Assembly: GCA_965215265.1 (NCBI GenBank)
Contig: OZ244048.1
Location: 1,504,001-1,568,000 of the forward strand
DNA from: Candidatus Poribacteria bacterium
GTDB lineage: Bacteria > Poribacteria > WGA-4E > WGA-3G
Direction of reading: 5' to 3'
Length of the DNA: 64,000 nucleotides
How positions within the stretch are numbered: position 1 is the stretch's first letter; every line of letters starts with the position of its first letter. Made by a program: the position numbers and the translations under genes. The notes below the pieces were generated by a model. It had not been told where the DNA came from, did not search any database, and saw only the letters and a list, made by a program, of their open reading frames with translations. Shown here piece by piece: positions 57,537-63,109 of the stretch.

Positions 57537-58145
57537 ATGAAAGATTGGATGAACGCGAAAAAAGGCATCGTGATTTTATTGGGCGGGCTGGTGTTAGTGT
57601 TTGCCTGCTACGGGCTGGTAAGAGCGCAATACGGCTTGAAGCCCGTTCAATCAGAGACGCGGCACATCGCCCCGCCGGTTGGGGGGCTCGCAGGGCTCGA
57701 GAGTGACTTGCCTGCAGTCTCCTCTGACTCGGTTTCTCCTGAAACGGTTGCAGAGTGGTTGTCCCTCTTACGTGCGAACGATGACGGTTCAGCCGTCTTT
57801 GCACAGGGGATAGCGAACCTTGAACAGGTGCTGTGGGAGATGCAGCCTGTGGAGCGGCCGCGGCTGTTAGCGAACTATCCGAATCCGTTCAACCCAGAGA
57901 CGTGGATACCTTATCAACTGGCAGTGCCAGCGGATGTGGAGATATCCATCTATGCGTTGGACGGGCGGTTAGTCCGGACGTTAGCATTGGGACATCAAGC
58001 GGCGGGCCGTTACGAGAGCAAGGCGCGTGCCGCGTATTGGGACGGGCGCAACGCCTCTGGTGAGCGTGTTGCAAGTGGTATCTATTTCTATACGCTGCGC
58101 GCCGGCGACTTCTCCGCGACGCAGAAGATGTTGATTAGGAAGTAA
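57537..58145 (+). CDS. Secreted protein consisting almost only of the shared C-terminal domain
   Basis: Hydrophobic N-terminus; DDGSAVFAQGIANLEQ; LLANYPNPFNPETWIPYQL...KMLIRK. Confidence 0.8.
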   Translation: MKDWMNAKKGIVILLGGLVLVFACYGLVRAQYGLKPVQSETRHIAPPVGGLAGLESDLPAVSSDSVSPETVAEWLSLLRANDDGSAVFAQGIANLEQVLWEMQPVERPRLLANYPNPFNPETWIPYQLAVPADVEISIYALDGRLVRTLALGHQAAGRYESKARAAYWDGRNASGERVASGIYFYTLRAGDFSATQKMLIRK

Positions 58146-58296
58146 AGGGAGACAGATGTGTAAGGGTGTGTGTGCCGTCTGCGTTTGACGCGGCGGTCCC
58201 GCCTCCAACCCCTCGTATTTTTAGCCGCGAGTGTTTCGCGGCATTTGGAGGACTCTAATGTATGATAAAAACGTGTCAAAGGTTTGGAGGGCTGTA

Positions 58297-61029
58297 ATGA
58301 ATAATAAAAGCGTGTCAGTGATGTTAGCAATATTGGCGTGTATAGTTTTAAGTTTAGGGAGTGTTGGCAATGTGTGGGCACAAAGGGTAAGCGTGGCTGC
58401 GGATGTCGGTGTGCTTTCGGCTGTGAAAGGTGATGCGGATGTGAATGGTGATGGCCGTGTGGATATAGTGGATTTGGCACTGGTAGCGGCGCGCCTGGGA
58501 ACCCGCGGTAACAGTTCGGCAGATTTGAACGGGAATAGTGTAGTGGATATAGGGGATGTGGCGTTAGTAGCAGAGGGGTTTAACGGTGCGGCGTCTGCAC
58601 CTGCGGCACCTGCGTCTGTGCCTGCAGGGATGGTGCTCATCCCCGGCGGCACCTTCCAGATGGGCAGCGATGCTGCTGATGCGCGGGATAACGAGCAGCC
58701 TGTGCGGAGGGTGCATGTGGACGCGTTCTATATGGATACGCACGAAGTGACTAACGCGGCGTATCAAACTTTTGTGCTGGCGAACCCGCAGTGGCAGAAG
58801 GGGCGTATTTCGGATGCCTTCCACAGCGGTAAGTACCTAAAACATTGGGAAGGTAATAACTATCCAGGGGGTAAAGGGGACCATCCTGTGACGTATGTGT
58901 CGTGGTATGCGGCGATGGCATATTCTGCGTGGGCAGGGAAGCGTCTTCCAACGGAGGCGGAGTGGGAGAAAGCGGCACGCGGTGGGGAGGCAGGCCGGAA
59001 GTATCCGTGGGGAGACACGATAACGGCGAACGATGCGAACTACGATAGGAATGTAGACGATACGACTTCTGTGGGGAGTTATGCTGCGAACGGGTATGGG
59101 CTGTTCGACATGGCTGGGAACGTTCACGAGTGGTGCCTTGATGAATGGGATAAGACATTTTATGCTGCGTCTCCGTCTCGTAATCCGCTGCGTGGTGTGT
59201 CTGGTAGTACGCTTGCGAATGTGGCTGAGATTGTAGCGGACTACACAGGCGTAAATGTGAACTTAAAGCGGGTTTTGCGGGGTGGTAATTGGCGTGCTGA
59301 TGCACGTTACCTGCGCGTCGCCGATAGGTTCAAAAGGGAGCCGACGTTCACGGAAAGCTTCGCCGGGTTTCGTTGTGTGAGTGCAGAGCCGCCGCCGGAG
59401 CTCCCCACACCGCCGGAACCACCCACACCGCCGGAGCCACCCGCACTGGAGCCGGAGCCACCCGCACCGCAGGCACCTGCAGGGATGGCCCTCATCCCCG
59501 CGGGCGAGTTCCAGATGGGCAGCAACGATGCCGAGGCCGATGGTGACGAGCAGCCTGTGCGGAGGGTGCATGTGGACGCGTTCTACATGGATACGCACGA
59601 AGTGACGAACGCCGAGTATAGAAGTTTTCTGCTGGCGAACCCGCAGTGGCGGAAGACGCGGATTCCGGATGCCCTCCATGATGGTAATTACCTAAGCGAT
59701 TGGGACGGTAATAAGTATCCTAAGCGTAAGGGGGACCATCCTGTGGTGAATGTGTCGTGGTATGCGGCGATGGCGTATGCGGCGTGGGCAGGTAAGCGTC
59801 TTCCAACGGAGGCGGAGTGGGAGAAAGCGGCGCGCGGCGGTTGGCTAGGGTTAAAGTATCCGTGGGGAAAGACGATATCCTCTGTGCATGCGAACTACGG
59901 TAGGAATGTAGGGGACACCCGTCCTGTGGGGAGTTATGCGGCGAACGGGTATGGGCTGTTCGACATGGCCGGCAACGTTTACGAGTGGTGCCTTGATGCG
60001 TATAATGTGGATTTTTATTCTGCGTCTCCGTCTCGTAATCCGCTGAGTGGAGTGTCTGGCAGTATGCTCGCGAATCTGGATGAGATTGTATCGGACTATA
60101 CCAATATTGAGTCTTCTCGCGTGTTGCGCGGCGGTAGCTGGTCCTTTGATTCACTCTTCCTGCGTGCCGCTAATCGCCGCGGGGATACCCCTACAGACAC
60201 CAACGGCAGCTACGGGTTCCGGTGTGCGAGGGCTGTGACTCCTTCCGTGCCGCCGGCACCGGGAGGGATGGCACTCATTCCCGCGGGTGCCTTCCAGATG
60301 GGCAGCAACGATGCCGAGGCCGCTGGTGAAGAGCAGCCTGTGCATACGGTGTATGTGGACGCGTTCTATATGGATACGCACGAAGTGACGAACGCCGAGT
60401 ATAAAAGTTTTGTGCTGGCGAATCCCGAGTGGCAGAAGACGCGGATTCCGCCTGCACTCCACAATGGTAATTATCTAAACCATTGGGACGGTAATAACTA
60501 TCCAGTGGGTAAGGGGGACCATCCTGTGACGTATGTGTCGTGGTATGGTGCGATGGCGTATGCTGCGTGGGCAGGGAAGCGTCTTCCAACGGAGGCGGAA
60601 TGGGAGAAAGCGGCACGCGGGGGGTTAGTTGGTAAGAAATACCCGTGGGGAGACACGATAACGCCGGACGATGCGAACTACGGTAATAATGTAGGCGGTA
60701 CAACGGCTGTGGGGAGTTATGCAGTGAACGGGTATGGGCTATATGATATGGCCGGCAACGTGTGGGAGTGGTGTCTTGATGCGTATAATGAGGATTTCTA
60801 TTCTGCGTCTCCGTCTAGTAATCCGCTGAGTGGTGTGTCTGACAGTATGCTCGCGAATCTGGATGAGATTATAGATAACTATACCAATGTTACCTCCTCT
60901 CGCGTGTTGCGTGGCAGGGGTTGGGCCGATAATCCGCGTACCGTGCGTGTCGCCGCTCGCTTCGGGCCTCCGCCGACGCTCACGTTCAACAACCTCGGGT
61001 TCCGGTGTGCGAGGGCTGTAACCCCTTAA
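58297..61029 (+). CDS. Secreted dockerin-like + three tandem FGE-sulfatase (CLec-fold) domains; probable DGR target
   Basis: GGAGG RBS and ATG 58297; DVNGDGRVDIVDL and DLNGN; three copies of F.MGS...EVTN...RLPTEAEWEKAARGG...DMAGNV.EW...RVLRG..W...GFRC. Confidence 0.9.
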   Translation: MNNKSVSVMLAILACIVLSLGSVGNVWAQRVSVAADVGVLSAVKGDADVNGDGRVDIVDLALVAARLGTRGNSSADLNGNSVVDIGDVALVAEGFNGAASAPAAPASVPAGMVLIPGGTFQMGSDAADARDNEQPVRRVHVDAFYMDTHEVTNAAYQTFVLANPQWQKGRISDAFHSGKYLKHWEGNNYPGGKGDHPVTYVSWYAAMAYSAWAGKRLPTEAEWEKAARGGEAGRKYPWGDTITANDANYDRNVDDTTSVGSYAANGYGLFDMAGNVHEWCLDEWDKTFYAASPSRNPLRGVSGSTLANVAEIVADYTGVNVNLKRVLRGGNWRADARYLRVADRFKREPTFTESFAGFRCVSAEPPPELPTPPEPPTPPEPPALEPEPPAPQAPAGMALIPAGEFQMGSNDAEADGDEQPVRRVHVDAFYMDTHEVTNAEYRSFLLANPQWRKTRIPDALHDGNYLSDWDGNKYPKRKGDHPVVNVSWYAAMAYAAWAGKRLPTEAEWEKAARGGWLGLKYPWGKTISSVHANYGRNVGDTRPVGSYAANGYGLFDMAGNVYEWCLDAYNVDFYSASPSRNPLSGVSGSMLANLDEIVSDYTNIESSRVLRGGSWSFDSLFLRAANRRGDTPTDTNGSYGFRCARAVTPSVPPAPGGMALIPAGAFQMGSNDAEAAGEEQPVHTVYVDAFYMDTHEVTNAEYKSFVLANPEWQKTRIPPALHNGNYLNHWDGNNYPVGKGDHPVTYVSWYGAMAYAAWAGKRLPTEAEWEKAARGGLVGKKYPWGDTITPDDANYGNNVGGTTAVGSYAVNGYGLYDMAGNVWEWCLDAYNEDFYSASPSSNPLSGVSDSMLANLDEIIDNYTNVTSSRVLRGRGWADNPRTVRVAARFGPPPTLTFNNLGFRCARAVTP

Positions 61030-61050
61030 ATCTTTACCCCTTTACCCCTC

Positions 61051-61068
61051 CGAGCTGCGTGCAGCTCG
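61051..61068 (+). promoter_or_regulatory. Short GC hairpin downstream of the terminal variable region (DGR target-recognition-like)
   Basis: CGAGCTG-CGTG-CAGCTCG 21 bp after the stop; no U tract. Confidence 0.5.
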
Positions 61069-61431
61069 TATCGAATGGAAAAAGCCCGAATAGCAAAGTT
61101 TGATGTTGCGGAATTTGAATGAAATTCCGCAACATCAAATGTTGTCATCACGAATCTTCTCTATCGATGCGCTGCGGCAACCGGTTGACTTCTATCTCTG
61201 TCTGGATAGAGGCACCCAGCCCAGAGAAGGGCAGCGCGAGGAACTCTTTGAAGAAAGGGTCCCAAAACTTCCGTTTGCTTTGTGTTTCTTTAGATGTCTC
61301 TGGTGCCGTAGTTTGCCTCATCTATCTGCTTAGACGCTCCACTTCTCATAATAAAGTATAGCAGCCTCCCTATTATTTTGTCAAGGCCGTCTCCAGATGT
61401 CGCTTCTCAAGGCGGCCTCGGTGCTTCTCTG

Positions 61432-61540: not shown

Positions 61541-63109
61541 TTAATCTGACAGCGGCGAGATATCCGATACTTGCGTATCACTGAGATCCAGCACTCTCAA
61601 GTTCGTGAGGTTTGCCAGCGGCGAGACATCCGACACTTGCGTACCCCCGAGATCCAACTCTTCCAAGTTGGTGGCGTATTCAAGTCCAGTCAGCTTGCTA
61701 ACGTCTGAGCCACCTAAATCTAGGCTTGTCAAGTCTAGCATATGTACCGAGGTCACAGCCGTCCCCGCGGCGATGTTGAGTGTCTCCTTGATTTTCGCAC
61801 GGAGCGTCTCATCCGGAATGGTCACCTCGACGCTTGTATTTACAGGCACCGTCAGCGTATTCGAGGCCAGGCTCAGGTTGCCCGCTATGTCCATGGTGGC
61901 ATTCTCTGGCACCGTTATTTCCACATTTCCGTCAAAAGCCGACGGCGGCGTGATAGTCGCTCTGTAGACTTTGAAGGCGGAACTATGTTTCACCTGTCCG
62001 TTATCATCCTTCATAGGAGGAAAACCGGGATCCCGATGGTCTAAGCCTATCAACATCGGGGCTGAAACCTGCCAATCAGCCGCGGTGGAGCCCAATGTCA
62101 CCGCGGTGTCATCTACCTTGAGCGTGATGTCCGTCGCCTCGAAGCCTCGCGTGGTATCTGCAATCACACCATCATCGCCACCTCCAATCCCATAATTGTA
62201 GAATAGGAATTCCACATCAAAGGACTCTGTCTGAGTGTCAGGTTCGGTAACAGCCGCATCGGGGTCTGTCGTTGAAAAGTCCACATGGGCGGTGCGGAAA
62301 CCCATCTCATCATGAGTCTCAGCCTTGATCAGCCCGGGAATCCTCACATTCGCCCGGATAGTATCTATGAGATAGTCATAAGTGTTGACATCTGCCTTAT
62401 TATAAAATAAGCCAAGTTTGTTCACAAGCTCGGCCCCGGCCCAAGCTTGTCCTCCTTGATGGGTACGTTTGATGTGATTATTAGCATCGGGAAGATTATA
62501 GGGAGGAACGTTAGGGATCTGAGCAAAACGCAGATCGCCGAAAACGTCATCACCGTCTTGCACCGTGTATGTGAAATATACGACTTTATTATCGAGTTCC
62601 GCCGTGGTCATAGTTTCATTATACACCGCGAGTAAATCCGTTCTGAGGTCCTGGTCTAAACGTAAAACCAGGTACGGCTTGTTGGAATCCGGATTCGTGA
62701 CTGTCACGTCGTCCCCAAATGTCAACTTAAAATGGATATTATCGCCAGTCGTGAAGAATTTAACTGTTCTGTCTGTCGTGGGTATGGAGGTGGAGGTGGA
62801 GTACCCCGGTGCAGTAAGAACATTACCTGTTTGAGCGTCTAGTAGCGGCTGCCCAGCACGATTGTTCCAATCGGCCAGTAACGCTATGCGGGCCGCGTTA
62901 TAGAGGGAATCGCCTGTCACTCGTGGATCGGGCGTGTCTGTCGTTATCTCAAGACTGTCTAAAACCGGTATATTTGCCTGCACGGTAGCCATCGGTGCGG
63001 CTAACATCGCAATCCCGGCTATCGAAATTACAGATGAGATAAATCCGCCACTCAACACGCAAATAAAACACTTAACATATAGAAGGGGGGGGTGCATTCT
63101 TCTCTTCAT
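61541..63109 (-). CDS. Secreted Ig-like-domain protein ending in a short LRR array
   Basis: Signal-like N-terminus; FTYTVQDGD and VPENATMDIAGN.S.AS Ig-like motifs; IPDETLR cap plus ~3 LRRs, then stop. Confidence 0.75.
   Translation of the reverse strand: MKRRMHPPLLYVKCFICVLSGGFISSVISIAGIAMLAAPMATVQANIPVLDSLEITTDTPDPRVTGDSLYNAARIALLADWNNRAGQPLLDAQTGNVLTAPGYSTSTSIPTTDRTVKFFTTGDNIHFKLTFGDDVTVTNPDSNKPYLVLRLDQDLRTDLLAVYNETMTTAELDNKVVYFTYTVQDGDDVFGDLRFAQIPNVPPYNLPDANNHIKRTHQGGQAWAGAELVNKLGLFYNKADVNTYDYLIDTIRANVRIPGLIKAETHDEMGFRTAHVDFSTTDPDAAVTEPDTQTESFDVEFLFYNYGIGGGDDGVIADTTRGFEATDITLKVDDTAVTLGSTAADWQVSAPMLIGLDHRDPGFPPMKDDNGQVKHSSAFKVYRATITPPSAFDGNVEITVPENATMDIAGNLSLASNTLTVPVNTSVEVTIPDETLRAKIKETLNIAAGTAVTSVHMLDLTSLDLGGSDVSKLTGLEYATNLEELDLGGTQVSDVSPLANLTNLRVLDLSDTQVSDISPLSD

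Follow-up and report, generated by a model that had tools for sequence, protein, structure and literature searches.

Diversity-generating retroelements (DGRs) that act on genes at a distance from their reverse transcriptase (RT) have been described in several bacteria, and the published figures compared here are those quoted in excerpts of the cited papers. In Treponema, one RT is thought to serve related targets scattered over the genome; the seven non-adjacent targets found there are given as the largest number in that survey, which also quotes eight tandem targets (PMC5758913). The same survey, Wu et al. 2018, includes a DGR target with three FGE-sulfatase domains, and each of the three seems to undergo diversification (PMC5758913). 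Thiohalocapsa sp. PB-PSB1 has nine DGR loci with 15 targets (PMC10907252), and 121 diversified genes are counted across 21 cyanobacterial genomes (PMC7517822). In the Bordetella phage system, the variable region (VR) is followed at 4-34 bp by a hairpin with a GC-rich stem of 7-10 bp and a 4-nt loop, and an initiation of mutagenic homing (IMH) element is needed (Guo et al., PMC3240598). Remote targets escape large metagenome surveys by design (PMC8144416), and their usual assignment rests on similarity between the template repeat (TR) and the VR alone. Here we analyse a gene with three tandem FGE/C-type lectin (CLec) domains in a 64,000-nt stretch of a Candidatus Poribacteria bacterium genome (contig OZ244048.1; G000:C1:1504001-1568000), which we call the window. 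Coordinates prefixed C1 refer to the contig, and coordinates given alone for the gene and its surroundings are positions in the window.

This gene is a remote DGR target of the Treponema TvpA type, with a tandem-FGE architecture that has already been seen once. On balance, we consider it fairly probable that the gene is targeted at a distance by the one DGR of this genome, that its terminal VR (VR3) was rewritten after gene duplication by a template state which we call class B, and that VR3 is quiescent or only rarely rewritten today. Like Treponema denticola TvpA, it encodes an FGE-type CLec protein with a C-terminal VR; it differs in having three tandem domains and a VR that departs from the present TR at 8 non-adenine sites. 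Compared with the seven targets quoted for Treponema, there are 24 terminal VR sites and 33 VR-like segments here for one RT. The target of Wu et al. 2018 is alike in its three FGE-sulfatase domains, but here the terminal domain alone is diversified. The PB-PSB1 and cyanobacterial DGRs are alike in the trans diversification of remote CLec targets and in target expansion by intragenomic duplication (PMC10907252; PMC7517822), whereas here a single cassette is found with about two dozen sites, and the targets are predicted secreted tandem-CLec proteins, not STAND/NACHT or kinase fusions. The three-domain open reading frame (ORF), first pointed out in an earlier note made from the sequence alone, was recovered by direct sequence reading, Pfam, and tblastn, and the elements discussed below are as follows.

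58297-61029, plus strand: target gene, a single ORF of 910 aa from the ATG at 58297 to the stop TAA at 61027-61029
58627-59385, plus strand: FGE/CLec domain 1 (tblastn), with a VR-like C-terminal end at 59269-59377, a decayed fossil
59482-60243, plus strand: FGE/CLec domain 2 (tblastn), with a VR-like C-terminal end at 60118-60229, a well-kept fossil VR
60229-61026, plus strand: FGE/CLec domain 3 (tblastn), terminal, with a live-type VR
60901-61012, plus strand: VR3, homologous to TR positions 1-112
61013-61050, plus strand: IMH-like element and spacer, including the stop, GGGCTGTAACCCCTTAAATCTTTACCCCTTTACCCCTC, from the alignment of 24 terminal sites
61051-61068, plus strand: hairpin or cruciform-type inverted repeat with a 7-bp stem and a 4-nt loop, CGAGCTG-CGTG-CAGCTCG
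G000:C1:1421035-1421146, outside the window: TR, a non-coding repeat of 112 positions with 35 adenines

The genome consists of one contig (C1) of 4.83 Mb at 95% completeness, and a Pfam profile search across it retrieved a single match to RVT_1. This RT (354 aa) belongs to a cassette in the order cis target (an FGE-domain gene ending in a VR), Avd (118 aa), RT, and non-coding adenine-rich TR, the conceptual translation of which is LRGGSWNNNTRNLRAANRNRNTPTNTNNNNGFRCA. Avd matched NF033474 at 120 bits (cut-off 80) and bAvd PF22296 at 83 bits. The best PDB match of the RT was 8ub7 at 9.6e-63, presumably the BPP-1 RT (the entry table names only "Reverse transcriptase"), and the best group II intron RT matched at 1.2e-20. 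The RT contains the motifs YVDD and IGNLTSQ, the latter of which we take to be a DGR signature, and by these matches a DGR-type RT and an Avd are present in the genome. The earlier note had proposed a remote RT and template, the latter to be sought as a non-coding copy of 60901-61026, and this was borne out by the adenine-rich TR beside Avd and the sole RT. Its description of the target as an "orphan" did not hold within this genome, as the cassette lies 143.9 kb upstream of VR3, with the TR approximately 83 kb before the first base of the window.

Set against the TR, VR3 is changed at 24/35 adenine sites and at 8/77 other sites (Fisher p 9e-10), the latter being TR positions 12, 16, 18, 21, 43, 48, 50, and 54; against TR positions 55-112, it has 0/35 non-adenine mismatches. 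The third base is kept in 12/12 AAY codons, and 9/12 of these codons are changed. All 12 codon pairs that the earlier note had listed between domains 2 and 3 read as given there, and the difference cct/ccg, which it considered beyond the reach of adenine mutagenesis, is explained by a TR codon CCA with its adenine at the third position. The 24-mer CGGGTTCCGGTGTGCGAGGGCTGT reported to end both domains is present at 60213 and at 60996. The domain-2 end differs from the TR at 20/35 adenine and 4/77 other sites, and the domain-1 end at 23/35 and 18/77. Across the 33 VR-like segments found genome-wide, the fraction of sites that depart from the TR averages 0.59 for adenines and 0.066 for the rest, and at nearly every adenine site all four bases are represented. 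That VR3 was made by a DGR is, in our view, almost certain.

We compared the target gene (P1564) with two paralogs, P4142 (C1:4.142 Mb) and P4442 (4.442 Mb), taking the three genes pairwise. Both paralogs are 93-100% identical to the target in most 90-nt windows, including the domain-2 end, and identity drops to 73-83% over 60856-61026. Within the terminal VR, the three genes differ from one another at 23-26/35 adenine sites and 4-11/77 other sites, as opposed to 0/35 and 1-5/77 in the domain-2 segment and 0-2/35 and 1-5/77 in the domain-1 segment. Because the adenine differences are concentrated in the terminal VR and are nearly missing from the inner ends, rewriting after duplication hit the terminal VR only, as the earlier note had supposed for the last domain. 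The VR-like ends of domains 1 and 2 stayed frozen and are fossils, the former decayed and the latter well kept, and they look like former terminal VRs trapped via domain or gene fusion. The proposal that the internal domains are archived variants fits domain 2, which keeps the TR signature (20 adenine differences, 4 others) without stop, spacer, or hairpin: the first ~15 nt of the IMH-like sequence are kept, after which linker coding sequence replaces these three elements.

Altered copies of the conserved 3' element were also observed at other loci. At C1:1417742, in the second gene beside the cassette, the stop is mutated from TAA to CAA, and the reading frame continues beyond the old stop. 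At C1:1665295 and 1666144 it is mutated from TAA to TCA, and both sites are now internal to a three-domain gene; these stop-mutated sites suggest a possible route from terminal VRs to internal fossils. The paralog at 1.263 Mb has a 33-nt internal duplication inside the fossil VR-like segment of its domain 2 (C1:1263656), and at its terminal VR (C1:1264478) the IMH-like element, spacer, and hairpin are deleted.

The TR and the VRs diverge directly after ...GTGTGCGA, from where the TR reads AGACCCTTTCC and the terminal sites follow a consensus of GGGCTGTNACNCCTTAAATCTTTACCCCTTTACCCCTTC and then CCGAKCTG-NNNN-CAGMTCGG. This conserved 38-nt element and the hairpin region are found at 24 terminal sites in the genome. 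At least 7/8 stem pairs are formed at 14 of these (12 by pattern match, and 998173 and 999080 by eye from the alignment) and 5-6/8 at 6, and the stem is absent at 4. The hairpin with a 7-bp stem and 4-nt loop that the earlier note had seen after the stop is the window's copy, with 7/8 stem pairs (the outer pair of the 8-bp consensus is broken) and a spacer 1 nt short of the consensus. Folded as DNA, it has a centroid of -7 kcal/mol and a z of -2.07, with 8/200 shuffles equalling it; by itself it is marginal, and its recurrence across loci is the real evidence. The loops follow the pattern C-R-N-G (CGTG, CATG, CACG, CGCG, CAGG). A double change in the stem from G-C to T-A is found at 4 sites; covariation lends little independent support, as this is the one double change and the stem sequence in the relative G004 is the same. 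A terminator role for the hairpin was considered and rejected, since no T-run follows the window copy and it is absent from a terminator pattern scan. At 61099-61139, 30 nt past the hairpin, there is a further inverted repeat with an 18-bp stem, located between the convergent target and leucine-rich-repeat genes, which has a minus-strand entry in that scan.

By analogy with the BPP-1 DGR (Mtd), the 3' element and hairpin would act in homing. The two systems are alike in having a VR-specific 3' element at the point of TR/VR divergence, with a GC-rich inverted repeat that has a 4-nt loop coming after it. Unlike BPP-1, the target here is served in trans at 144 kb and the cassette order is target-avd-RT-TR. 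The loop is C-R-N-G and not the quoted 5'-GRNA consensus, and the last TR-homologous base is followed by the hairpin at a distance of 38 nt, just past the quoted range of 4-34 bp.

Six of the eight non-adenine differences of VR3 (T12, G18, T21, T48, T50, C54) are found together in 10 other segments, and the adenine sites differ among all 11 segments with these markers. Such sharing bears out the remark in the earlier note that drift or a second template was implied. A seventh marker, G43, is present in 3 other segments, two of which carry all six block markers. Since T21, G43, T50, and C54 are also present in the TR of the relative G004, the marker states are template-borne and probably older; T21, T50, and C54 are likewise present in the decayed domain-1 ends. 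From these shared states, we infer that the last template to write VR3 was probably an older or different state (class B) and not the present TR, so that VR3 would be quiescent or rarely rewritten today. Four VRs, by comparison, have 0/77 non-adenine mismatches to the TR: the cis VR (C1:1419065-1419179) and those at C1:1795834, 4150364, and 4795105. The coding DNA upstream of these four has a mutual identity of 78-89%, and such perfect register despite diverged upstream DNA indicates that the present TR has been writing them. They are also the only four sites with the perfectly paired T-A variant of the stem, a variant that occurs at the G004 cis target as well. In contigs from the runs X3, X5, and X7 (three runs from two studies), VR3 is unchanged, with 0 differences over 60852-61022 (60812-61019 in X7); among the pieces listed for run X1, none spanned VR3. 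A dip in depth over 60840-61173 was set aside as paralog recruitment with no meaning for variation in VR3.

Under the established DGR model, the TR RNA would be reverse-transcribed by an RT-Avd complex with random misincorporation opposite adenines, and the cDNA would replace the VR of a target bearing the IMH-like 3' element and downstream hairpin. VR3 of the target gene would be served in trans by the cassette 144 kb away. On our reading, it would have been written last by the class-B template state, and a smaller set of VRs (cis and a few remote) would be kept in register by the present TR.

Several observations weigh against this reading. The adenine share of the VR3 mismatches is 75% (24/32), just below a published working rule for DGR VRs, under which >80% of mismatches are at adenines (PMC7517822); an alternative published rule is worded "only A-to-N, minor exceptions" (PMC5758913). 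The domain-1 end, which is not a VR, is also enriched for differences at TR-adenine sites (23 versus 18), so the TR comparison alone is weaker than the comparison of paralogs. No class-B-marked template is present in the assembly, in which the lowest number of adenine-site mismatches of any other segment is 15. We would like to note that the run comparison was made on Logan contigs, which drop rare variants, and that the runs may include the source of the assembly. The cis elements of VR3 are near consensus (7/8 pairs, spacer shorter by 1 nt), and nothing in them disqualifies VR3 as a live target. Finally, all eight non-adenine mismatches fall within TR positions 12-54, and short 3' conversion tracts from the present TR may have reached VR3. 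We hold present activity of VR3 to be a minority prospect, though one of some weight.

The best surviving alternative, which we regard as unlikely but serious, is that VR3 is active today, with the present cassette rewriting it in trans at low frequency or through partial 3' tracts and the class-B markers escaping because 5' cDNA integration mostly falls downstream of them. The near-consensus IMH-like element and hairpin favour this, as does the fact that TR positions 55-112, where most of the adenine sites lie, show no non-adenine mismatch. The VRs at 1004525 and 1666144 carry class-B markers in their 5' part only, the pattern that a 3' tract of the present TR would produce, and variable 5' boundaries of mutagenesis are described in the survey cited above (PMC5758913). 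However, the adenine sites at TR positions 25-42 are diversified among the class-B paralogs with class-B markers on both sides, which argues that full-length rewriting used a class-B template, and VR3 is identical in the contigs of all three runs (contigs only).

A bolder extension of the preferred reading, which we put forward as doubtful, is that successive template states can be read as a stratigraphy from the non-adenine markers of the two dozen VRs. In that case, the RT would address only those of the ~24 competent-looking sites that have matching cis elements, and the others, the target gene among them, would be a frozen archive of receptor variants with relative dates.

It is less likely again that a second DGR template bearing the class-B markers, with or without an RT of its own, resides on an unassembled replicon or prophage or has very recently been lost. 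Such a template would account for the 11 segments that share class-B markers with all their adenine sites different, and for the presence of at least three states (T, C, G) at marker 54. P1564 and P4442 are 93-99% identical and yet their class-B VRs differ at 26/35 adenine sites, from which it follows that the class-B template was active recently. Against this, the 4.83 Mb assembly, in one contig at 95% completeness, yielded one RVT_1 match and one adenine-rich TR-like segment, no other adenine-rich TR copy being found in gapless and gapped scans, and a close RT homolog was found in G004 only among the 30 relatives searched.

That no retroelement is involved, and that positive selection or gene conversion has driven apart the ordinary hypervariable loops of a set of paralogs, is extremely improbable: loop codons of FGE-fold paralogs do vary naturally, and the non-VR domain-1 end differs from the TR mostly at those codons, but the third bases of 12 AAY codons are kept with the first and second randomised, adjacent domains of the same paralogs have 0/35 versus 23-26/35 adenine-site differences, the non-coding adenine-rich copy adjoins Avd and the RT, and 24 sites share a conserved non-coding element behind the stop.

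Further observations were made on the VRs of other sites. Those at C1:4150364 (minus strand) and C1:4795105 (plus strand) are frameshifted internally (5 single-base gaps and a 2-base insertion) and have perfect hairpins. The gaps are at TR adenines, and the tblastn matches end at query residues 249-250; barring errors in the assembly, mutagenesis itself looks to have broken these targets. VRs 3 nt (one codon) longer than the TR were seen at 1419065 (cis), 1795834, 2357213, 2359547, 3732660, 1666144, and others, with the extra codon mostly in or near the AAC run, and other VRs have 6-nt indels or a 21-nt deletion. For these lengths, the present TR is insufficient without slippage, or else the template length has changed. 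A tandem array at C1:997500-1006800 comprises at least 7 FGE-domain genes; every one of them has a VR, stop, and spacer of its own, and a hairpin is present in most. The classes are mixed within it, one VR having 1 non-adenine mismatch and its neighbours 6-12.

The target protein matches FGE-sulfatase PF03781 in three stretches (Pfam, E 3.6e-186). A match to Dockerin_1 (18.8 bits, E 0.0019) is under the Pfam cut-off of 22.9, and we describe this region as dockerin-like. Among solved structures, the sequence of domain 3 matches the FGE 6muj at 7.7e-38 and the T. denticola variable protein 2y3c at 9.9e-13. The segment ...LCHDsyC... of 6muj, whose cysteines we take to be the catalytic pair, aligns to ...WADNP--- in domain 3, which has no active-site cysteine pair; the translations of domains 1 and 2 likewise have no cysteines at this segment. 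As the FGE cysteine segment has no counterpart, we class the domains as FGE/C-type-lectin-fold binding modules and not as enzymes. An N-terminal hydrophobic segment (MNNKSVSVMLAILACIVLSLGSVGNVWAQ) ending in ...VWAQ was read by eye as a probable signal peptide, and the product, with its three binding modules of the CLec/FGE fold, is predicted to be secreted or located at the surface. An alternative GTG start of the ORF is at 58231.

The 5' end of the gene (58240-58330) contains an imperfect repeat of ~33 nt (…KNVSKVWRAVM / NNKSVSVM…), with a copy number that varies among paralogs. In this repeat, contigs of runs X3 and X5 show a joint (58299/58266) going back 34. The target is flanked at 57537-58145 by a gene for a 202-aa protein that matches FlgD_ig at 36 bits (against a cut-off of 27) and, more weakly and under the cut-off, type IX secretion C-terminal sorting domains, and at 61541-63109 by a gene for a 522-aa leucine-rich-repeat protein; the FlgD_ig and leucine-rich-repeat proteins fit a surface or secreted neighbourhood. 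Farther away, the ORF at 53884-54927 matches the Eco57I restriction-modification methylase family (E 1e-10, partial profile coverage).

In G000, a tblastn search with domain 3 gave 54 high-scoring segment pairs at E <= 1e-10, of which 44 were at >=54% identity. A close RT homolog was found in 1/30 relatives searched, namely G004, whose RT is 83% identical and which has 37 domain matches at E <= 1e-30. In G001, a genome from the same genus, no RT match was found at E <= 1e-20, and the domain gave only 5 matches, the best of them 58% identical; this comparison of DGR and domain counts among lineages covers three genomes and is an anecdote, not a test. The cis VR of G004 differs from its own TR at 15 adenine sites and no others, and its cis hairpin is CGATCTGC-GTAA-GCAGATCG. 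The CGATCTGC stem is kept at the G004 cis target and two other loci with the loop GTAA or GTCA. Behind most remote VRs of G004 (L092, L100, L102, L105, L107, and other loci), another repeated palindrome (…GGCACAC-TCC-GTGTGCC…) stands in place of the G000-type hairpin. A metagenome scan with domain 3 returned 586 relatives, with a best identity of 64% and none near-identical. Literature searches on DGRs in Poribacteria and on many-target DGRs turned up no account of the system (a paper that mentions both DGRs and Poribacteria is a cold-seep virus study without bearing on it), although the supplementary tables of one survey (PMC5758913) may list this genome or a sister of it.

The two dozen sites that face one cassette exceed the quoted maxima of seven non-adjacent and eight tandem targets (PMC5758913) and of 15 targets over nine loci (PMC10907252). 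In the near-identical paralogs, rewriting is tied to the position at the gene end, beside the stop, spacer, and hairpin, and a similar VR trapped inside the gene stays frozen. Site competence and the ageing of a target family can both be studied in this genome as in a natural experiment, and the family's marker record of changing template states is notable for specialists. For the organism, these genes would amount to a large stock of secreted, multivalent lectin-like binders, part of it archived.

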